A stretch of DNA of 64,000 bases from an uncultured Methanoregulaceae archaeon (GCA_963701095.1 OY969564.1:2016001-2080000); one strand, 5' to 3'; positions 22,599 to 63,952 are shown, numbered from the stretch's first letter. Translations and numbers: made by a program. Notes: a model not told the origin generated them from the sequence alone.

Positions 22599-23363
22599 AT
22601 GAAAACACCTATGCTCACCTTTATCGGTCTTGGTCTCTACGATAAACATGATGTTTCGGATAAGGGACTTTTTCTTATAAGGAATGCCGATCACGTCTTT
22701 CTCGAGAATTATACCTCCCGGCTTATGGGGACAACAAAAGAAGAGCTCGAAGCGTTCTACCAAAAACCACTCCTGCTGCTCAAGAGAGAGGATGTAGAGC
22801 AACACCCGGATTACCTGCTTGAATGTGCACTTCAGGGAAATACAGTTTTTCTCTGTGCCGGTGATCCCATGGTCTCGACAACTCACGCGGACCTCCGCAT
22901 TCGGGCGGCTGAACGTGGCATTCCAACCGCTATCATTCACGGTGCATCGATTGTGAGCGCGATTTGTGGGCTTTCAGGTCTCCAGAATTACCGGTTTGGG
23001 AAATCGTGCTCAGTGCCTTTTCCTCAGGGTCGATGGTCTCCGATATCGCCGTTGGAAGTAATTGAAGAAAACCGTCTGCGCAGATTGCATACCCTCGTAT
23101 ATCTCGATATCCAGGATGGGCGTTATATGTCCGTAAATGAAGGTATCTGTTTGCTTGAACGCATGGCAGAGAAAAAACAGGTCACTATACCGCTTTACGT
23201 CGGTATCGCAAGGGCCGGGTCTCCGGCTCCGGTTGTGCGGGCCGGGACCGCCACTGATCTTTGTTCTGTGGATTTTGGTCCGCCCCTTCATATTCTGATT
23301 GTCCCGGGAGATCTCCACGATATGGAGCAATTATACCTCGAGAGGTTTGCAGGCCTATGTTGA
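22599..23363 (+). CDS. dph5: Diphthine synthase
   Basis: [38 protein letters not shown] and DFGPPLH motifs. Confidence 0.95.
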
Positions 23364-53253: not shown

Positions 53254-54459
53254 GTGTACATGCGTGTCGCTGACCCCGAAGGATACCGGTATGCCACCGA
53301 GGAGAAAGTCAATCGCAGGATTGATTCCTTTCCTCCTGATGAACGTGAACTGGTAAGAGAGTACATCAATACCAGTAGAGCCCAGAAGGGTATAAAATTA
53401 GTCAGGGTTGTTGGAATTATCGCTGGTCTGAAAGCCTGGCGGGATATCATCAAAAAACCGTTTCAGAAATGGACGCGCAATGATGTTTACCAAGGTGTTA
53501 CCTTCGTACGGGACAAAAAAAATTACAAACAAAATACGTCGATCATTTACATCGCCCTTATGAAAGCGTTCCTGACATGGATGATCACGGAGAAGTATTC
53601 GAAAATTCCCCTTGAAGAGATCATTAAAATCCAGTTGCCGAAAGGCGATACTGGATCCTTCAAACCTGGCGACATTCTTACCGAAGAAGAAGTCAGGACT
53701 ATTCTCTCATGTTGCGGATCTGATCGGGACAGGGCGTTGATTGCCTTGCTCTACGATGGAGGTTTCCGCATGGTTGAAGCGGCAATGATGACCTGGGGAG
53801 ATCTCGATTTTCAGTTCGATGACAGGATCACTGCGCGTACCTCACAGAAAACCTATGTCCCCCGTGTGGTTTCCCTTATGTCTTGTAAAGAGCTGATTGC
53901 AACATGGCGCTCACATTACCCGGGCAATCCGGTAGGCGATAACCCTGTTTTTGTAACCAGGGATGGCGAACCATTTACGTACTCGACAGCCACTGAGGTT
54001 ATAAAAAGTATACGGCTTAAAGCGATCAAGAAAGGTCTCGATCCAAAGAGAATTAAATTACACCAGTTCCGACGAGCATCAATTACCCATGAGGTCAATA
54101 AGGGACGCCCGATTTCTCATATCTGTATTGAACGCTGGGGCCGGGCATATTCTCCGATGATTGAGGTATATGCAAAACCCAGTGAGCAGGACGTTCTTCG
54201 CTCAAAGATGGAAATGTTCGGCGTAGAACCCAAACGGAAATATGAGAAGCGGAAAACAGCGATGACACCGACTCAATGCCAACATTGTGGTTTTATCAAT
54301 TCACCAGAAATTGAGTTCTGCGGAAAGTGCGGGAAACCGTTGTCTGAAGAAGCATTGACTGAAATTGAAATACTCCGAAAGGAGAGAGATATGGCTTTGG
54401 ATTTGGTGAACAAAGCGTATAAGGAAGGAAAGTTGGATTTAAAAGAACTTACGAGGTAG
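53254..54459 (+). CDS. Tyrosine integrase with C-terminal zinc ribbon
   Basis: RDRALI.LLYDGGFR..E (Arg), KT, HQFRR (HxxR) and IEVY (Tyr); CQHC...CGKC ribbon. Confidence 0.9.
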   Translation: MYMRVADPEGYRYATEEKVNRRIDSFPPDERELVREYINTSRAQKGIKLVRVVGIIAGLKAWRDIIKKPFQKWTRNDVYQGVTFVRDKKNYKQNTSIIYIALMKAFLTWMITEKYSKIPLEEIIKIQLPKGDTGSFKPGDILTEEEVRTILSCCGSDRDRALIALLYDGGFRMVEAAMMTWGDLDFQFDDRITARTSQKTYVPRVVSLMSCKELIATWRSHYPGNPVGDNPVFVTRDGEPFTYSTATEVIKSIRLKAIKKGLDPKRIKLHQFRRASITHEVNKGRPISHICIERWGRAYSPMIEVYAKPSEQDVLRSKMEMFGVEPKRKYEKRKTAMTPTQCQHCGFINSPEIEFCGKCGKPLSEEALTEIEILRKERDMALDLVNKAYKEGKLDLKELTR

Positions 54460-56331: not shown

Positions 56332-56795
56332 CCCGGTCGTGGCCTGTCTCTCCAGATGCGAAGGAGTCCCGCCGGGGCGCTCGTATCAAGAACGCGAAGA
56401 AAACCGTTATCGATGGGATACTGTTTGCGTCACGTATGGAATCCCGGCGATATGTCGAGCTTAAGAAACTGAAAGCGGCTGGTGTCGTGACTAAAATCGA
56501 GTGCCAGCCGGTATTTGAACTCCAACCGGCGTACCGGAAATGCTGCGACGTGACATATAACGCCGAAGATGCGCCGTTCCTTTATAAAAAAGGTATCTGC
56601 GAGTGTTGCGGGAAGAAGATGCCGATAATCAAAGCGATCCGGTATGTTGCCGATTTCCGTGTGACCTATGCAGATGGCAGGGTAGAGATTGAAGATGTAA
56701 AAGGCCATGAAACCGAAATTTTCAAGATCAAGAAAAAGATCCTGGAATGCAGGTATCCGGAGATCACGCTTAAAGTAGTAACGAAGGTGCGGTGA
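56328..56795 (+). CDS. DUF1064-family putative endonuclease with Cys-rich insert
   Basis: IDGILFASRME.RRY, QPVFEL, YVADF.V.Y and IEDVKG motifs. Confidence 0.82.
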   Translation: MTRSWPVSPDAKESRRGARIKNAKKTVIDGILFASRMESRRYVELKKLKAAGVVTKIECQPVFELQPAYRKCCDVTYNAEDAPFLYKKGICECCGKKMPIIKAIRYVADFRVTYADGRVEIEDVKGHETEIFKIKKKILECRYPEITLKVVTKVR

Positions 56796-57321
56796 TGTCG
56801 CACCAGCGCAAAGGGGATTACAAAACCCAGAAGGATGAGTGGGAAACCCCGGACTGGCTCTTTGCATTACTTGATCGGGAGTTTAATTTCAGGGTGGATG
56901 CAGCCGCTCGTAAACACAACACAAAGACCGGACTATATTTTGAGGATGCGATTTCTGTGGACTGGGCACATCAAGGGGGAATTGACCCAGCTATTTCCTT
57001 AATCCTCCCTACAGTGTCGGGAATATCAACCGGTTCATGAAGAAAGCCTACAAGGAATCTTTGAAGGGTGCGGTAGTCGTTTGCCTCGTACCAGTCGCAT
57101 CAGATACCCGGTGGTGGCATGATTACGTCATGCATGCGCAGGAGATCCGGTTTATCCGGGGCCGGGTGAAGTTCATCGGCTATGATGAGCATGGAAAACA
57201 GATCCAGAACTCTCCGACATTCTCTTCGTGTGTGGTGATCTTCAAACAGGAACGGCGTCAGGACTGGGAAAACCCAAGAATCGGCGAAACCATCCTGCAA
57301 CCCCGGAAGGTGCCAGCGTGA
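56792..57321 (+). CDS. Phage-type DNA N6-adenine methyltransferase (apparent frameshift near 56975)
   Basis: DEWETPDWLF..LDREF.F.VDAAA, then YFLNPPYS, LVPV.SDTRWW and IRFIRGRVKF in the shifted frame. Confidence 0.88.
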
Positions 57322-57914: not shown

Positions 57915-58724
57915 TCAAAAAAAATCAGATAGAGAAGAGTTTATATTTTTTATCTTTTTTGGCGGGTAATATACACCTATCAATAACCAATTATTCCACT
58001 TGCTTTCTGTCCCCATATAAAAATAAATATCTCGTTTTGTGAGCTCGTCAAAATATTTTTGTTTGACCTTCGCAAAGCAGTTATCCAATCCATATTTATC
58101 CCGCATCTTTCTCCACAGTTCACCCAGTTCCCAATCTTCACACATCATGTTATGATCTTTACATCGATCATCACAACATCTGAAATGATACCCCATCCAA
58201 TAAGGAATATATTCTAATGGTGACTTGTAATCTCCACAAAGTGTGGTTTGTCTTCCGGTGATTAATTCCTTCTCCCAATCCCTGCATGCACCACGATCTT
58301 TTTTATAAAAATCAAAAATTCGATTGGGTTTGATCAATCCTAAGGATGTTCCATCCTCTTCAGATCGCTCTATCAAGTCTTCAACTGATTTATTCAGGAG
58401 AGGAAGGATAATTTTATTTCGTGCATCCCAATCAATGGGGCTTTTAGAGAGGGACTCATCAACTATTTCTATGGTATCTGGTTTTATTTTGTGGCTTTCC
58501 TTTCTTTGGTATTTTTCATGTTCTTTTGATTTTTGTGCTTCTACTTCAATCCAAATGTATCTTTTAAATTGTTTATGAGGCGGGAGCTTGCGAAAAGGTA
58601 CTGGATACATCCTTATCCAGTTTCCTTCGTCGGTTATACCTGCCACACATACTGTTTCTTCATATTTTTCACTTAAATTTGGATACGCCTTAACAGTAAC
58701 AAAAACTTTAACTTTTTTCCACAT
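57915..58724 (-). CDS. Uncharacterised protein of the type found beside DUF488 genes (possibly dual-OB-like)
   Basis: VKAYP..S.KY.ETVCVAG...WIRMYPVPFR, RKES, SLGLIKP, CEDWE and FYMGT...IGVYYPP pattern. Confidence 0.7.
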   Translation of the reverse strand: MWKKVKVFVTVKAYPNLSEKYEETVCVAGITDEGNWIRMYPVPFRKLPPHKQFKRYIWIEVEAQKSKEHEKYQRKESHKIKPDTIEIVDESLSKSPIDWDARNKIILPLLNKSVEDLIERSEEDGTSLGLIKPNRIFDFYKKDRGACRDWEKELITGRQTTLCGDYKSPLEYIPYWMGYHFRCCDDRCKDHNMMCEDWELGELWRKMRDKYGLDNCFAKVKQKYFDELTKRDIYFYMGTESKWNNWLLIGVYYPPKKIKNINSSLSDFF

Positions 58725-58783
58725 ACTTCCCTTTAAAGCGAATAATAATAAATTCTTCGAGTATTAGAGAATTTTTAACCGTC

Positions 58784-59827
58784 TTATAAATCAATTCTTT
58801 CTTTAAATTCACCGGTTGCTAATATCAAGTTTGCCAAAATATGCCTATGGCAATGTATTTTCTGATCTCTAGTTGGTTTGGCATGCTTTTCCATACACAT
58901 TAAAACGGTCTTGCCGTTACTTTTTATTTCATCCACAAATTTCTTGAAGTCCATTTCTTTCTCAGTATGCCATTTGTAATATTTTTCAAGACATTCTATA
59001 GGAATAGCTCCATCCTTGTATGGGTTTTGCCATTCATATGGAATCCCAAGATCGGGACGGTGCTCGTATTTTATTTTGGCTCTATCCAATTCCCTTGCTA
59101 GAATGGATTTATTAAAATCTGGTTTATATTGAGATTCTGCTGAGAATCGAACGTCTATCAGACGTACGATACCATTATTTTTGAGTATCTCAATGAACTG
59201 TTGAATTTCTTTCCCCTCATAGCCGATTGTATAAATTGTATTATTGAGGAAACGATCTCTTTCCCTTCTTGCATCCTCCTCATTAGTTATATTCTTTGAT
59301 TTTAATATTTTTAATAACACGGGCTGTGCTGATTTCTCAAGCGATGAAATAATTAGTGCTATTGAGTTGCTTATGCTGCCATCAGCCAACGCCTTAGCTA
59401 CGGTTTCATGTAAATCTAAAGCCAGTTGTACCCTGCTATTTACCCAAGTGTGGCTTTTACCAACTTTTTCTGCTATTGCAGCACCTGATAATTTAGTGGT
59501 CTCCATTATTGCTTTTAAAACTCGCCCCTGTTCAACCTGACTCATTTCTTGCCTAAGCAGGTTGGTTTTGATGCTGAGAAACATTGCATCAAGATCACTG
59601 AGGTCTTTCACAGTGGCTTCAATCTCCTTCCATCCGAGTTCTTTAGCTGCTTGGACTCGGTTGTGTCCACCAATTAATTCATACCCTTCTCCCTTGGGTC
59701 TTACGAGGATCGGATTCCACTGACCATCTTCTTTAAGACTTTCTCTTAATTCACTGATGTACTCAGGATCGAGTTTTTCACGAACAGTAAAAGTCGTATC
59801 ATCAATTTTGCTTATTTTTATCTTCAC
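58784..59827 (-). CDS. ParB/Srx domain - HTH - DUF488 fusion protein
   Basis: L.ESLKEDGQWNPILVR...LIGGHNRVQA (ParB), IAEKVGKSHTWV (HTH), IYTIGYEG...LIDVR...LG...LMCME...CHR (DUF488); AGGTGA before GTG. Confidence 0.85.
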   Translation of the reverse strand: MKIKISKIDDTTFTVREKLDPEYISELRESLKEDGQWNPILVRPKGEGYELIGGHNRVQAAKELGWKEIEATVKDLSDLDAMFLSIKTNLLRQEMSQVEQGRVLKAIMETTKLSGAAIAEKVGKSHTWVNSRVQLALDLHETVAKALADGSISNSIALIISSLEKSAQPVLLKILKSKNITNEEDARRERDRFLNNTIYTIGYEGKEIQQFIEILKNNGIVRLIDVRFSAESQYKPDFNKSILARELDRAKIKYEHRPDLGIPYEWQNPYKDGAIPIECLEKYYKWHTEKEMDFKKFVDEIKSNGKTVLMCMEKHAKPTRDQKIHCHRHILANLILATGEFKERIDL

Positions 59828-59871
59828 TGATCATCACCTAAAAATTGTTTTTGAGTTTTTTATGATTCATC

Positions 59872-60087
59872 TTATTTATTTACCTTCCAAGTAATATTAC
59901 CACTCGTTTTTTCTCTGATCAATCCTATGTCCCTCTCCATCCATTTAACCCAAGTATTGTTTGGCACTTTTTGAGGGAAATTTGCTCTCGTTTTTATCTC
60001 ACTCCAAGTGAGTCCCCGAGGATTTGTTATTAACAGATCTTTTATCTTTTCTTTAAACGTTTCATACGTCATTTTCTCTTCTTTCAT
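59872..60087 (-). CDS. Small winged-helix-like protein
   Basis: IKDLL...GLTWSEIK... pattern; first gene of the inverted AT-rich cassette. Confidence 0.55.
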   Translation of the reverse strand: MKEEKMTYETFKEKIKDLLITNPRGLTWSEIKTRANFPQKVPNNTWVKWMERDIGLIREKTSGNITWKVNK

Positions 60088-60387
60088 TCTCAGCTGCCCC
60101 TTATATTTTTACTTTTAGATACTTCCCCCAAATATAAATGAGTTTTCTTTAGTTCTTTTTACACTCTTTTCGATAATCTTCTACGACGTTAATTTTATGG
60201 GAATATTTCAGTAAGGATTTTTGCATTTAGGGATAAATCGTGGCTTCTCCTGGGCTAGTGCTATCCATTCACACCCACCCTCCCGTACCCTCATTGACCG
60301 TCCTGAACCTCACCTATCGTTTATCTCAGTCCCGCAGCCATTTTCCTTTGTATTTCCCGCAAGTATGCGGTGAAGGACACGTGCACT

Positions 60388-60840
60388 ATGCCAGACAACG
60401 GAATGTCAGCCGATATCCTCGGCCTGTTTTTCGGTCAGTACAACTCCGCAGAAGGTGAGACTGACCCCAGTACCGATCTCACGATTGCAAAATCAGATCT
60501 CCTCGGTCTTGGTTCCGAACGCCTCATTGTAGGCCGGTACGCATGGAAAAACTCAACCAACCACACGCCATCCCTCGTCTGCCAGGTGGCAATCGACGGG
60601 CTTCCAATCATATCTGATTATGGCGGTGCAAACATCTGGGCCTCAGGTCGTGCCGGAACCATCGATGAAGTGGTATTTCAGTATCCCAACACCGCAAAAG
60701 CTCTCTCGCTTGGCAAACACACCGTCACCATCACGCCCGGTGTCCATTATGGCGTTCTGGGCGCCCAGAACACCTTCGGTATCGGTTTCCCGGCAACATC
60801 CTGGTTCACCCCCAGGACGTTCAGCATCACGTTAGTGTAA
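60388..60840 (+). CDS. Beta-rich viral hypothetical protein
   Basis: GGTGA upstream; Gly/Thr-rich, LSLGKHTVTI Ig-like ending. Confidence 0.55.
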   Translation: MPDNGMSADILGLFFGQYNSAEGETDPSTDLTIAKSDLLGLGSERLIVGRYAWKNSTNHTPSLVCQVAIDGLPIISDYGGANIWASGRAGTIDEVVFQYPNTAKALSLGKHTVTITPGVHYGVLGAQNTFGIGFPATSWFTPRTFSITLV

Positions 60841-60843
60841 ATC

Positions 60844-61311
60844 ATGCCCCTTTCACCCGATAAGATCGGCAATGGTGTAGCCGGGATAGATTTCGACCCG
60901 TATGCCGGGCAGGAAGACAGCCCGTTTCTGCCTAACCCGCTCGTCCTGCTCTGTTTCCTCATCGGACAAGTGTACCCACCGGCCATGGACTGGATGGGAT
61001 ACTTTCCCCCTCACAATTACCGCCAGTGGCACATCGTCGAACAGGCGCTCGCGGCAGGCTGGAACAATGGCGCCATCAAGAGAGGTGTCGTTCCTGCCAT
61101 TCCAACGTGCCCGATCCTCTGGCAGGACGTTTCCCACTACTGGAACTTCGGCGGTATTGTCGGGATCCTTGCCTATGAGCTGGTTGCATACATCCGCGTT
61201 GTTATGGTCATCGTCGGGCTCCTGCTACTCGTGCACTGGAATACCCTCACGCCCCAGAAAGCGCTCACGATCATCCTGCAGCAGTTCGGGATCGTGGTGC
61301 CTACGTCATAA
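60844..61311 (+). CDS. Viral membrane protein
   Basis: C-terminal hydrophobic segments; starts 3 nt after the upstream stop. Confidence 0.55.
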   Translation: MPLSPDKIGNGVAGIDFDPYAGQEDSPFLPNPLVLLCFLIGQVYPPAMDWMGYFPPHNYRQWHIVEQALAAGWNNGAIKRGVVPAIPTCPILWQDVSHYWNFGGIVGILAYELVAYIRVVMVIVGLLLLVHWNTLTPQKALTIILQQFGIVVPTS

Positions 61312-61327
61312 GAATATGAACACCATC

Positions 61328-61421
61328 GGGTCTGTGTTTGCTGCCGTCTGGACGCTGTTCCATGGTACGGGTGCAAAGCTCTTACACCTTCAAGGGTGCG
61401 GTTCGTTCCGCCACAGATCCA
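61328..61421 (+). ncRNA. tRNA-like structured element (9-bp closing stem, 4-bp T-like arm)
   Basis: GGGTCTGTG (61328-36) pairs with CACAGATCC (61412-20); GCGG-TTCGTT-CCGC; internal TTTGC/GCAAA and CCGT/ACGG stems. Confidence 0.45.
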
Positions 61422-61532
61422 TGCCCGGTGTTGCCGGTGGTTTGGTCACCAGCCGGCCGCCCGGGACAACTAACGACAATGCCTTTGCACATCCTCTATC
61501 CGGCGGTTGTTCACCTCCTCCCGCCGGAATGT

Positions 61533-61608
61533 GCCACTGAAGCACCTGCTGGCTCGGTGCGTTCAGCCTGTAACTGAAAGGGCGCAGGTTCGATTCCTGC
61601 CAGTGGCT
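61533..61608 (+). tRNA. Non-canonical tRNA-Thr(UGU)-like gene
   Basis: GCCACTG/CAGTGGC acceptor, GCAC/GTGC D stem, TTCAG-CC TGT AA-CTGAA, AGGGC variable loop, GCAGG-TTCGATT-CCTGC T arm. A8, C14 and C33 deviate from consensus. Confidence 0.75.
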
Positions 61609-61612
61609 TTCC

Positions 61613-61765
61613 ATGCGAACACGATTCTGTAGAGAGTGTGGGGAAACGTTCGAGGCGGTTGACGATAACGACTGGCTCTGCAAGAAATGTCTGCTCGCGG
61701 GATTCCGCGTATTATCCCAGGATACCAGAAAAATCGCCAGGAAAGAAGAGGTTCCGAACCAATGA
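61613..61765 (+). CDS. 50-aa zinc-finger microprotein (not in ORF track)
   Basis: MRTRFCRECGETF...LCKKC; ATGA overlap with the ParB gene. Confidence 0.6.
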   Translation: MRTRFCRECGETFEAVDDNDWLCKKCLLAGFRVLSQDTRKIARKEEVPNQ

Positions 61766-62373
61766 AAAACCCGTTAAAAGAAGAACCTGTGCCTGCCGGT
61801 GTGGGTAAAATCCTGCTGACGCATCTCATCCCGGATCCAAAGAACCCGCGTAAAGATCTTAAAAAAGGCGATCCGGAATTTGAGAAGATCACCACGTCCC
61901 TTGAAAAGTTCGGACAACTCGATCCGATCATCTTCAATACCCGTACCCGGAAGGTGCTCGGCGGTCATCAGCGGTTGAAAGTCCTCGCATCAAACGGATA
62001 TACGGAACTTAACACGTTTACGGTAGGGGCATACACCTGGGCATTTGCAGAGACCGATCTTGCAGAACTCTCACCATCGGAAGAAAACGCTGCTAATATC
62101 GCCCTGAATAAAGCGCAAGGCGACTGGAACGTGGACCAGCTCCTGATCAATCTCCAGGATCTTAAAGCCGAGGGAATGCTCGAGGTCTCCGGGTTTGATG
62201 AAAAGGAGTTCGAGAAATTAAAAAAGAAACTGGGAGAACCCGAAGATTCCAGCGACACCTCCCTGAAATCCGCGTTTGAAGTCATTATCGAGTGTGCTAA
62301 CGAAAGCGAACAGGAACAGGCGTATAACGAGCTCGTAGAGGCCGGGTACAAATGCCGCGTTTTGACATTGTAA
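61762..62373 (+). CDS. Phage-type ParB/Srx N-terminal domain protein
   Basis: LIPDPKNPRK, SLEKFGQLDPIIFN, GGHQRLK and NIALNK..GDW motifs. Confidence 0.85.
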   Translation: MKNPLKEEPVPAGVGKILLTHLIPDPKNPRKDLKKGDPEFEKITTSLEKFGQLDPIIFNTRTRKVLGGHQRLKVLASNGYTELNTFTVGAYTWAFAETDLAELSPSEENAANIALNKAQGDWNVDQLLINLQDLKAEGMLEVSGFDEKEFEKLKKKLGEPEDSSDTSLKSAFEVIIECANESEQEQAYNELVEAGYKCRVLTL

Positions 62374-63437
62374 AGAAAACGGAAGCTGCCGGAACGTTCA
62401 AGGTTGAACAGGTAAAGGGCGCCTTCGATCTCCAGACATCTACCATCCAGGAGCATTTTGCCGGCGACATTGCCATTGAAGGTAAAGACTGGAACATCGG
62501 CCTGATTGTAGGCCGGAGCGGAACAGGGAAAACCACAATCGCAAAAGAATGCTTCACTGATGCCTACATAGCGCCAAACGATTATAGCCTGGCTGCAATC
62601 GTGGATCAGATGCCGAATGGACTTTCCTATGCTGAAATCACGCACATGTTCACGGCTGTAGGTTTTTCATCACCTCCTTCATGGCTGAAACCATACGCGG
62701 TACTGAGCAATGGGGAACAGATGCGGGTCGACCTCGCCAGGGCCCTTTTGGAAGAGCGCGAGTTGATAGTGTTCGATGAGTTTACGAGCGTGGTAGACCG
62801 GGACGTTGCGAAAGTCTGCTCTCTGGCGGTCAGTAAAGCCGTCCGAAAGATGGGTAAAAAGTTTGTCGCCGTTTCCTGTCACGATGATATCATTGCATGG
62901 TTGCAACCTGATTGGCTCTACGATACCAATCAGCAGACGTTTTCCTTTCGGGACGGCCACGAAAAACGCCCTGAAATCACGGTTGACGTATTCGACACCC
63001 ACAGAAACGCAAAGCTATGGAAGGTTTTTGCGAAGTATCACTATCTGAATACCGAGATTAAAAGGGGCACGGACACGTTTGTAGGCTGTATCAATAATGA
63101 ACCTGTAGCCTTCTGCGCTGTCAGGCATTTTCCTCACCCGATGAATCCCAGGATAAAGATGGTTCACCGGCTGGTTGTCCTGCCGGATTACCAGGGAATA
63201 GGTATAGGCACCCGGTTCCTGGGATTTGTTGCTGACCTGTATAAGAAAAAGGGATTTGCCGTTCGCCTGGTTACTTCCCAGGTGTCGCTTATCAATTCCC
63301 TGGAAAAACACGGCTGGCGGTTGAAATCGTTCGGCCACCAGGCTAAAGTAAAGAAGGCTGGACTAAAACATCTGAAAAAAACGAACAGTAACCGCAGGAT
63401 TACCGCATCGTTCAAATATACTGGGGGGATTAATTGA
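62352..63437 (+). CDS. ABC-type ATPase fused to a GNAT acyltransferase
   Basis: GRSGTGKT, LSNGE, VFDEF and SCH; then KYHYL and RLVVLPDYQGIGIG (GNAT motif A). Confidence 0.88.
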   Translation: MPRFDIVKKTEAAGTFKVEQVKGAFDLQTSTIQEHFAGDIAIEGKDWNIGLIVGRSGTGKTTIAKECFTDAYIAPNDYSLAAIVDQMPNGLSYAEITHMFTAVGFSSPPSWLKPYAVLSNGEQMRVDLARALLEERELIVFDEFTSVVDRDVAKVCSLAVSKAVRKMGKKFVAVSCHDDIIAWLQPDWLYDTNQQTFSFRDGHEKRPEITVDVFDTHRNAKLWKVFAKYHYLNTEIKRGTDTFVGCINNEPVAFCAVRHFPHPMNPRIKMVHRLVVLPDYQGIGIGTRFLGFVADLYKKKGFAVRLVTSQVSLINSLEKHGWRLKSFGHQAKVKKAGLKHLKKTNSNRRITASFKYTGGIN

Positions 63438-63952
63438 CCAAAAAGAAATCCCCGTCTGAAAAAACGGGAAAAAGGGGTCGTCCGCCCGCATTTAAACCCG
63501 AATTTCACTCTAAATTAGTACTCGAACTCGCAGAGCAGGGAAAGACCAATGCCGAGATCGCCGAAGGCATGGGAATATCAACCGGGACTTTGTGGGCTTG
63601 GGCTAAGAAATATCCTGAATTTCTAAGCGCCCTAAAGACCGGCAAGGAGGAAACCGACAAAGCGGCAGTGAAGACCCTCTTACAGCGTGCGATGGGATAC
63701 ACGACGACCGAAAAGAAAGTTATCCAGAATCCCGACGGCTCCACTCGTAAAGAAATTACGGAAAAATTCGTTGCTCCCGATACAACCGCCTTAATATTCT
63801 GGCTCAAGAACCGCCAGCCACAGGATTGGCGCGACAAGCACGAACAGGAGATCACCGGGAAAGAAGGTGTTCCATTATCAGGGCTCATGATCCCGCCCGA
63901 ATCGTTAAAAGACGTTGGTGATCTCCTCGCCAGAAAAAAGGAGCGAAAATAA
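63434..63952 (+). CDS. Putative terminase small subunit (HTH type)
   Basis: RGRP..F, EIAEGMGIS.GTL.AW.KKYPEF..AL..GK and PDTTALIFWLKNR.P..WRDK pattern. Confidence 0.75.
   Translation: MTKKKSPSEKTGKRGRPPAFKPEFHSKLVLELAEQGKTNAEIAEGMGISTGTLWAWAKKYPEFLSALKTGKEETDKAAVKTLLQRAMGYTTTEKKVIQNPDGSTRKEITEKFVAPDTTALIFWLKNRQPQDWRDKHEQEITGKEGVPLSGLMIPPESLKDVGDLLARKKERK

Follow-up and report, generated by a model that had tools for sequence, protein, structure and literature searches.

A tRNA-like element and a viral tRNA gene ahead of the packaging genes of a methanogen provirus: a candidate t-element at the early/late boundary

We describe a tRNA-like RNA element, a candidate t-element, from a provirus in the genome of an uncultured Methanoregulaceae archaeon. 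The window, i.e., the stretch of DNA analysed here, is 64,000 nucleotides (nt) long and corresponds to G000:C1:2016001-2080000, where G000:C1 denotes the source contig; L-numbers denote the loci examined. In the window, the element fills the first part of a 301-nt gap (61312-61612) between a membrane-protein gene and a small open reading frame (ORF) at the head of the late/packaging block, a gap that also holds two GC-rich hairpins and a tRNA gene. The best explanation of this gap is that it consists of two RNA genes plus a spacer, read from the + strand within a viral transcript that passes from the early/middle genes on into those for packaging. The first of these RNA genes is very probably a genuine structured RNA and represents a new, narrowly distributed family without an Rfam entry; the second is almost certainly a virus-encoded tRNA-Thr(UGU). 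As to function, we tentatively read the element as a t-element, to which we give close to an even chance: cleavage by RNase P and tRNase Z, as predicted from sequence, would leave a near-leaderless late mRNA. Its most likely mode of action would be of a known kind, in the new setting of the early/late boundary of a methanogen virus, where a viral tRNA can take the place of the element.

The gap had been singled out in an initial annotation, made from the sequence alone, as a proviral cluster of four consecutive structured modules. The flanking stop codon at 61311 and the next ATG at 61613 were both confirmed, and the four modules lie where that annotation had placed them, with every stem that it listed visible in the sequence; the dense tiling it described amounts to 242 of the 301 bases.

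Structure and conservation of the element

Taken by itself, the fold of module 1 is weak evidence: positions 61328-61421 (+ strand; entered as 61327..61423, at 87.4 bits under the covariance model R1 described below) form a 9-bp closing stem that encloses three hairpins, at -36.8 kcal/mol and a z of -2.18. It is the recurrence of this fold with compensatory changes that carries the case. In the window copy, helix P1 pairs 61328-61334 with 61414-61420 and is extended by 61335-61336 pairing with 61412-61413; there follow the long hairpin P2 (61337-61377), the variable hairpin P3 (61378-61397), the T-arm-like hairpin P4 (61398-61411) and a discriminator-like A at 61421, all on the + strand. The arms meet in a tight four-way junction with zero linker bases between them.

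Across copies, the 7 bp of P1 are followed by a pyrimidine (U or C) and a G:C pair. The P2 hairpin measures about 40 nt, and its strands carry 12-nt and 9-nt stretches that are invariant among the eight aligned copies, in contrast to the variable P1, P3 and P4 loop; because these bases never vary, two alternative inner pairings of P2 are indistinguishable. P3 ranges from 12 to 20 nt in length. P4 combines an invariant 4-bp GCGG/CCGC stem with a 6-nt loop that reads UUCRNN in 8/9 copies; a 10-nt version of the T-arm motif (GGTTCGATCC) occurs in two of the nine copies, and the 11-nt version GGTTCRANYCC in none. P1, the extra G:C pair and P4 stack to 7 + 1 + 4 = 12 bp in 8/9 copies, the window copy having 13 bp. 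Twelve base pairs also make up the acceptor/T helix in tRNAs and, as modelled, this acceptor/T-like stack would give the element the tRNA-like total length expected of a t-element. The D and anticodon arms are replaced by the single long hairpin P2, with no D arm, and P3 stands at the position of a class-II variable arm.

The pairing was assessed on an alignment of eight of the nine copies, which, having been fitted to the model, is slightly biased in its favour: pairing holds in 97.2% of 215 pair cells, whereas shifting the partners by 1-3 columns leaves at most 52.0% paired. Compensatory changes among homologs, for which the initial annotation had called, were indeed found, with 5/27 pairs changed on both sides and the P1 pairs co-varying; the observed covariation score was reached by only 1/500 shuffles. 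One-sided changes mostly yield G:U pairs (14 cells in a 7-copy count) and, since these would be A-C mismatches on the opposite strand, they point to an RNA read from the + strand, which is the strand of all genes neighbouring the element. The claim that module 1 is tRNA-like and structured is thereby upheld, with no Rfam family matching it.

These alignments also bear on two readings in which module 1 would not act as RNA. In the first, the region would be protein-coding, through frame 60902..61540 or as an N-terminal extension of the small downstream ORF. Open frames do span the region, and in 3/8 copies a GTG within the element is in frame with the downstream ATG; against this, indels of 1, 2, 4, 5 and 8 nt shift the phase repeatedly between copies and break every frame, and frame 60902.. 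overlaps the homology-supported frame 60844..61311. Module 1 is not protein-coding, because the conserved nucleotide blocks fall in different frames in different copies, and a coding role for the region is scarcely credible; the conserved reading frame that the initial annotation had itself raised as a challenge was thus looked for and rejected.

In the second, module 1 would be a DNA site, whether an attachment site (attP), a pac/cos site or an origin. The element lies just upstream of the terminase genes, and a tRNA-like gene serves as attP in halovirus HF2, according to the part of PMC8707807 drawn on here; other published work below is likewise cited for the parts drawn on. The G:U-preserving, RNA-type covariation fits RNA and not duplex DNA, which speaks against a DNA site of any of these kinds. 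An attP of the HF2 type was rejected: the element lies 7 kb from the integrase, is intact in three integrated proviral regions as well as in one other island, and has no counterpart among the host tRNAs by BLAST or covariance model across the genome. A DNA site is very improbable. The literature yielded no description of such an element in archaeal or methanogen viruses, returning only the HF2 attP case and a viral tRNA.

Some further sequence features were noted in and around the element. CACCUUC, the letters of a 16S rRNA 3' end, stands in the P3 loop of 4/9 copies, and ATCACCU, also 16S 3'-end letters, occurs twice just upstream of the element (L003 1472-1505; L015 3220-3240); both motifs lie on the + strand and may reflect either chance or Shine-Dalgarno binding. 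Immediately 5' of the element, the 13-nt flank TATGAACACYATC is found in the window (61314-61326) and in L173 (2473-2485), and in the alignment it is common only to these two loci, which also carry a tRNA; it may be part of the RNA, or else the mark of a tRNA-carrying sub-lineage.

Copies and distribution

At least nine copies of the element were found: four in the source genome, all on the + strand, and five on metagenomic or viral contigs (L015, L044, L106, L173 and L199). BLAST of the gap against the genome returned two further copies at 74% identity, and model R1, built from three genome copies, recovered a fourth, more divergent one. Outside the genome, L015 was reached via the ATPase-GNAT neighbour protein, as the one positive among nine IMG/VR loci; the other eight IMG/VR loci encoding relatives of this protein, together with the single genome locus doing so (1/1), have neither element nor tRNA. 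Both IMG/VR contigs that encode a relative of the upstream membrane protein carry the element. L044 and L106 emerged when viral and metagenome contigs picked out by pattern scans were searched with the model (3/94 loci positive, the third being the L015 contig again), L173 was one of three new loci and is carried on a 36-kb viral contig, and L199 was found among 47 loci searched of 49, with L197 and L208 left out as contigs already counted. Since the metagenome scan reported at least 120 stretches, 80 of which were searched as loci, further copies are probable.

Under strict filters, the element was found in none of 107 other genomes of the genus, and there was no credible match among 150 genomes of the order. 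A match at G499/L168 (28.3 bits) was rejected as antisense inside a 724-aa low-complexity ORF; matches at L178 and L181 (22.5 bits), which fall inside a coding region of a high-GC phage, were rejected too.

Position relative to the late-block start codon

What the element does is hinted at above all by its position. In 7/9 loci, it follows the same membrane-protein gene and stands ahead of the packaging block, with its 5' end 11-21 nt past the upstream stop codon in the four copies measured. The distance from its discriminator to the next AUG is 5 nt in L003, L015 and L044 and 4 nt in L014 and L106. In these five loci, the downstream ORF encodes a conserved 49-aa Cys-rich protein without a Shine-Dalgarno sequence, the gap essentially is the element, and there is no room for a promoter between element and AUG. 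The next gene, ParB-like, has a GAGGU-type Shine-Dalgarno sequence.

The window and L173 differ in that a true tRNA occupies the spot held elsewhere by the element. In the window, the four-base spacer UUCC (61609..61612, + strand) runs from the tRNA discriminator to the AUG, and the same UUCC is found 3' of the element in L014 and L106. The layout recurs in L173 with other sequences: a multi-tier hairpin directly adjoins the element, a 257-nt spacer and tRNA-Met(CAU) come next, and UCU separates this tRNA from the AUG of a 44-aa Cys-rich ORF, beyond which lie the terminase genes. Where a true tRNA lacks an encoded CCA, its maturation requires a cut behind the discriminator, so that the downstream message in the window and L173, if co-transcribed with the tRNA, begins 3-4 nt before the AUG. 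Among the 47 other tRNAs of the genome, an ATG-initiated ORF of at least 40 aa lies within 6 nt 3' of the tRNA in only one case.

This arrangement could also be that of an uncut, cis-acting leader of the late operon, in which module 1 would be an operator, an attenuator or a ribosome-recruiting structure governing either read-through by transcription or translation of the small ORF. The element does lie at the early/late boundary and abuts an AUG without a Shine-Dalgarno sequence, and in the window and L173 a strong hairpin follows it immediately. In those same two loci, however, the element is 190-340 nt from the AUG, with a tRNA that needs excision in between, and no T run follows hairpins 2 and 3, unlike the case at most host tRNA genes. 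We consider such a leader unlikely.

The viral tRNA-Thr

Module 4 (61533..61608, + strand), which the initial annotation had described as a cloverleaf without naming it, is confirmed as a tRNA-Thr(UGU). ARAGORN assigns it the anticodon UGU and Rfam RF00005 gives 48.7 bits, against a gathering score of 29; of the two tRNA-like modules, module 4 was called as a tRNA by both programs and module 1 by neither. The tRNA has an 11-nt D loop, an A at position 8 and no encoded CCA, and it is identical to the host tRNA-Thr(UGU) in only 46/79 aligned columns. Its location between provirus genes makes it a viral tRNA gene rather than an integration site. T runs stand 3' of most host tRNA genes, whereas none follows the viral tRNA-Thr.

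Codon supply does not obviously explain its presence, since ACA is less frequent in the provirus than in the host, at 14.5% of the 325 Thr codons in 16 provirus genes compared to 24.7% in 500 long host ORFs.

The hairpins between element and tRNA

Module 2 (61424..61465, + strand) is a three-tier GC-rich hairpin of -26.2 kcal/mol (z -3.15) that begins 2 nt past the element, and module 3 (61499..61528, + strand) is an 8-bp hairpin of -15.2 kcal/mol (z -3.92) that ends 4 nt before the tRNA. The 33-nt linker between them (61466..61498, + strand) is largely unpaired, and 61422-61532 as a whole folds as a hairpin at each end with an open middle of about 30 nt. None of 12,792 sampled 42-nt windows of the 64 kb is as stable as module 2, and only four of 12,794 sampled 30-nt windows are as stable as module 3. 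These are exceptional hairpins private to this virus lineage: they are absent from 7/9 loci and were found only in this virus and near-identical relatives, on contigs of four metagenome runs from four studies. Exact-pattern scans of IMG/VR gave no homologs of modules 2-4, and BLAST against 400 genomes of the phylum gave only tRNA-like pieces of at most 36 nt. Among the relatives, the differences listed for module 2 amount to a single substitution, at an unpaired base, plus small indels in one contig.

These hairpins may have no RNA function of their own, representing either a leader brought along by an inserted tRNA gene or CCGG-rich DNA palindromes, i.e., protein-binding or methylation sites, and to this we give a substantial, if less than even, chance. 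Being palindromic, modules 2 and 3 fold equally on the minus strand, so that the fold is uninformative as to RNA versus DNA; their absence from most loci and databases fits this reading, as does the L173 spacer, which has no sequence similarity to them. On the other side stand their stability, extreme for this window, their retention in the relatives from those four studies, and the presence in L173, too, of a multi-tier hairpin directly after the element.

A transcription terminator was rejected as an explanation for modules 2 and 3: archaeal transcription termination relies on oligo-T, and no run of four or more T occurs in 61424-61612. The 14-nt loop of hairpin 3 (61507-61520) holds UCACCUCCU, a run of nine letters also present at the 16S rRNA 3' end in this genome; with 23 genome copies, this 9-mer is no rarer than chance. 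A 9-nt direct repeat flanking the cluster and an 8-nt complementarity between P2 and the linker were likewise at chance level by estimate, and modules 2 and 3 contain no copy of the 5' end of the tRNA from which a hairpin leader could have been built. The second most stable hairpin region of the window lies far away, at about 23191-23260 (-25.7 kcal/mol for the 42 nt at 23211), and also ranks high at 30 and 94 nt.

A processing model and the evidence weighed against it

In the t-element reading, host RNase P would cut at the 5' end of the element, leaving the upstream mRNA to end 11-21 nt after its stop codon, and tRNase Z would cut after the element's discriminator. In the five closest syntenic relatives, this second cut would yield a near-leaderless late mRNA, with just 4-5 nt ahead of the small Cys-rich ORF's AUG. 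In the window, a 187-nt insert comprising hairpin 2, the linker, hairpin 3 and tRNA-Thr would have been placed between element and AUG, such that 3' processing of tRNA-Thr would now make the same UUCC-AUG end. Set free between the two cuts, the piece 61422-61532 and its terminal hairpins would be either a by-product or a small RNA. Leaderless messages do exist in methanogens, at about 16% of transcripts in one species (PMC5378194), and the host encodes both an RNase P RNA and an RNase Z homologue, which gives the model supporting context. The proposal that the tRNA-like units serve as processing marks is thus compatible with their abutting, at 3-5 nt, an AUG without a Shine-Dalgarno sequence, but the purpose originally given for those marks, the release of two middle RNAs, is not supported: modules 2 and 3 are absent from 7/9 loci, and excision would give a single RNA of roughly 111 nt.

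Several observations weigh against this model. (i) ARAGORN makes no tRNA call for module 1, including in its intron, lowered-threshold and organellar modes; Rfam RF00005 gives no match at E values up to 10; and R1, conversely, matches no true tRNA in the genome at E values up to 1. (ii) The T-like loop has 6 nt and not 7, there is no D arm with which it could dock, and the UUC of the P4 loop is not invariant, L173 having UCCACC. (iii) Two loci depart from the close spacing: L199 has a 17-nt spacer between element and AUG, and L002, where the next ORF is about 60 nt away, belongs to a different gene setting. (iv) The nine copies are close relatives from one viral clade, so that the covariation is modest and the AUG spacing does not represent many independent events; the independent cases are the two tRNA ones, Thr and Met. 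(v) Most methanogen mRNAs studied have leaders, in the data drawn from PMC5378194. (vi) P2 is the most conserved part of the element, which a pure processing signal would not need, and this points to a further or different function.

Variant tRNAs were considered as well. An intron-bearing, D-armless or selenocysteine/pyrrolysine-type tRNA was rejected for module 1, as these ARAGORN modes and Rfam were negative, and manual inspection revealed no bulge-helix-bulge motif in it.

The conservation of P2 also underlies another idea, in which module 1 would chiefly act in trans, as a stable viral small RNA and tRNA mimic whose P2 binds a protein or RNA; the partner could be, for example, the adjacent small Cys-rich protein, or a tRNA-acting host enzyme or toxin. 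Here the tRNA-like ends would have no task beyond releasing and stabilising the RNA, which is compatible with the t-element reading. The fixed 12-nt and 9-nt stretches of P2 amid otherwise variable arms favour it, as does the L002 copy, which lies outside the packaging context and 2.3 kb from AbiEi/AbiEii and a Schlafen AlbA_2 gene; the small RNAs C and D of phage T4 are likewise without known function, in the account taken from PMC9697503. A trans-acting role alone would leave both the strict 4-5 nt spacing to the AUG and the replacement by a true tRNA unexplained, and we regard it as possible but doubtful. Within the t-element reading, the P2 conservation and the L002 context suggest that the 94-nt RNA, once excised, may also act in its own right. 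Around L002, the Schlafen AlbA_2 gene and the AbiEi/AbiEii pair lie 2-3 kb from the element (L169 2116-4845; G000:C1:405115-407844), and a link there between a tRNA mimic and tRNA-directed defence is speculative.

A more elaborate version, which we consider improbable, is that of a natural tRNA-processing cassette, with the mimic and the tRNA as cut marks through which host RNase P and tRNase Z would at once end the early mRNA, make the late mRNA leaderless and release two small RNAs. The first would be the mimic of roughly 94 nt, with P2 binding a viral or host factor, e.g., as a decoy for tRNA-attacking defence enzymes; the second would be the spacer of roughly 111 nt with hairpin-capped ends, whose 16S-3'-end-like loop could bind Shine-Dalgarno sequences. 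If true, such a cassette would be the natural counterpart of engineered tRNA-flanked guide-RNA arrays.

Provirus and host

The proviral setting proposed in the initial annotation was borne out, with an integrase, a small terminase subunit, a terminase nuclease domain, a portal and an SU10-type capsid protein all present, the last three beyond the right end of the window. The gene order is integrase, DUF1064, a split Dam methylase, an AT-rich island, two genes without assigned function (60370-61311) and the 301-nt gap, followed by a 50-aa zinc-ribbon ORF, a ParB-like gene, an ATPase-GNAT fusion and the small terminase subunit. The integrase, a tyrosine recombinase with a C-terminal zinc ribbon (53254..54459, + strand; Pfam PF00589, E 3.8e-14), marks the left part of the provirus. 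The last gene ahead of the RNA cluster (60844..61311, + strand, from the ORF list) encodes a 155-aa protein with a hydrophobic C-terminal part, the membrane protein referred to above; it has no Pfam or PHROG match, and it matches the syntenic protein of L014 (BLASTP, E 8e-09).

Downstream of the gap, the late/packaging block is headed by the 50-aa CxxC...CxxC ORF (61613..61765, + strand, from the ORF list), which has no Shine-Dalgarno sequence and no family match in Pfam or PHROG. It is followed by the ParB-like protein (61762..62373, + strand, with a start at 61687 or 61762; PHROG 620/498, E about 1e-29), an ABC-type ATPase fused to a GNAT acetyltransferase (62352..63437, + strand; Pfam PF00583 and PF00005; PHROG 11143, E 4.9e-94) and the terminase small subunit (63434..63952, + strand; PHROG 309, E 4.7e-46).

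The source genome is a single contig of 2.6 Mb. It encodes McrA and an archaeal RNase P RNA (209.6 bits), which identifies the host as a methanogenic archaeon. An RNase Z homologue is present in two adjacent frames (159 and 134 bits) at G000:C1:873607-874489 (L224/L225), with profile positions 1-150 in one frame and 147-296 in the next. The Dam-type adenine methyltransferase of the provirus (PF05869; window 56792-57321) is similarly divided into two adjacent ORFs covering profile positions 6-67 and 78-146, which could reflect a frameshift, a sequencing indel or a programmed shift. Taken together, the split RNase Z, Dam and terminase ORFs and a completeness of 86% for a one-contig genome suggest indel errors in the assembly.

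The genome has three related proviral regions, around 98-111 kb, 786-808 kb and 2069-2100 kb of G000:C1, which have early genes and the ParB-like and ATPase-GNAT proteins in common at 48-96% identity. Together with L002, they account for the four genome copies of the element. The AT-rich island of the provirus (window 57915-60100, minus strand; GC 0.34-0.38 versus about 0.50) carries a ParB_N-HTH_ParB-DUF488 fusion (58784-59827), a 269-aa protein without a family match, and also a 71-aa ORF; this island has the look of a later insertion that may have brought in defence or anti-defence cargo. A second AT-rich island, of 10 kb with a GC of 0.30-0.41, lies between the portal and capsid genes (L159 3903-13365; G000:C1:2083903-2093365) and encodes an 853-aa protein without assignment, a 1081-aa PLD-nuclease/SNF2-helicase and two Eco57I-type methylase ORFs, resembling a restriction/defence module inside the structural block. 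Within 50 kb to the left of the window, tRNA-Cys(GCA) occurs three times (G000:C1:1957145, 2002990 and 2006724), and at two of these genes ORFs of about 130 aa start 5-13 nt downstream; the three may be integration sites of other elements.

Relation to known systems and significance

To our knowledge, hardly any work has addressed RNA processing in archaeal viruses, of which those infecting methanogens rank among the least studied. The small RNAs C and D of bacteriophage T4 lie in its tRNA gene region. They resemble the element in being small stable viral RNAs linked to viral tRNA genes, and differ in being bacterial; the likeness is drawn from their description.

The closest parallel is with Haloferax volcanii, where RNase P and tRNase Z process tRNA-like t-elements and a tRNase Z cut behind one such structure forms the 5' end of 5S rRNA, as described in the portions of PMC4326828 and PMC3296008 used here; t-elements have already been used in Haloferax to release RNAs. 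There, too, an archaeal, non-canonical tRNA-like fold lies inside a longer transcript and its 3' cut sets the 5' end of a downstream functional RNA, as we propose for the provirus, and the engineered layout of t-element, RNA and t-element mirrors the natural layout of element, spacer and tRNA in the window. The Haloferax element is cellular and not viral; the downstream product predicted here is an mRNA, and the two elements are likened by description, not by sequence.

In plant mitochondria, t-elements define both 5' and 3' ends of mRNAs, with tRNAs and t-elements at equivalent mRNA-end positions, according to the material used from PMC1920247. The viral element is alike in its T-arm-like hairpin, in its location at predicted mRNA ends and in standing where a true tRNA stands elsewhere. 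It differs in that the mitochondrial t-elements were found by the 11-nt GGTTCRANYCC, the viral loop being one base shorter, and in that they belong to another domain of life and have another origin.

As to archaeal viruses, HFTV1 also encodes a tRNA-Thr (per the portion of bioRxiv 10.64898/2026.09.13.751334 used here); compared with virus-encoded tRNAs such as this one, module 4 is set apart by its position 4 nt before an ORF and by the underuse of ACA relative to the host. The attP of HF2 is likewise a low-scoring tRNA-like sequence in an archaeal tailed virus, but it adjoins the integrase and matches the 3' part of a host tRNA, in the description drawn from PMC8707807, whereas module 1 does neither and is whole when integrated.

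If our interpretation is correct, the element would add a defined RNA family outside Rfam, and it could serve as a compact processing tag in methanogen genetic tools, as t-elements do in Haloferax. It would also reveal a simple rule by which a tailed archaeal virus separates early from late messages via the tRNA-trimming enzymes of its host, as well as a means of starting translation without a ribosome-binding site, by borrowed tRNA processing. It would further offer an alternative reason for a virus to carry a tRNA gene for a codon that it uses less than its host: as a cut mark rather than a decoding aid.

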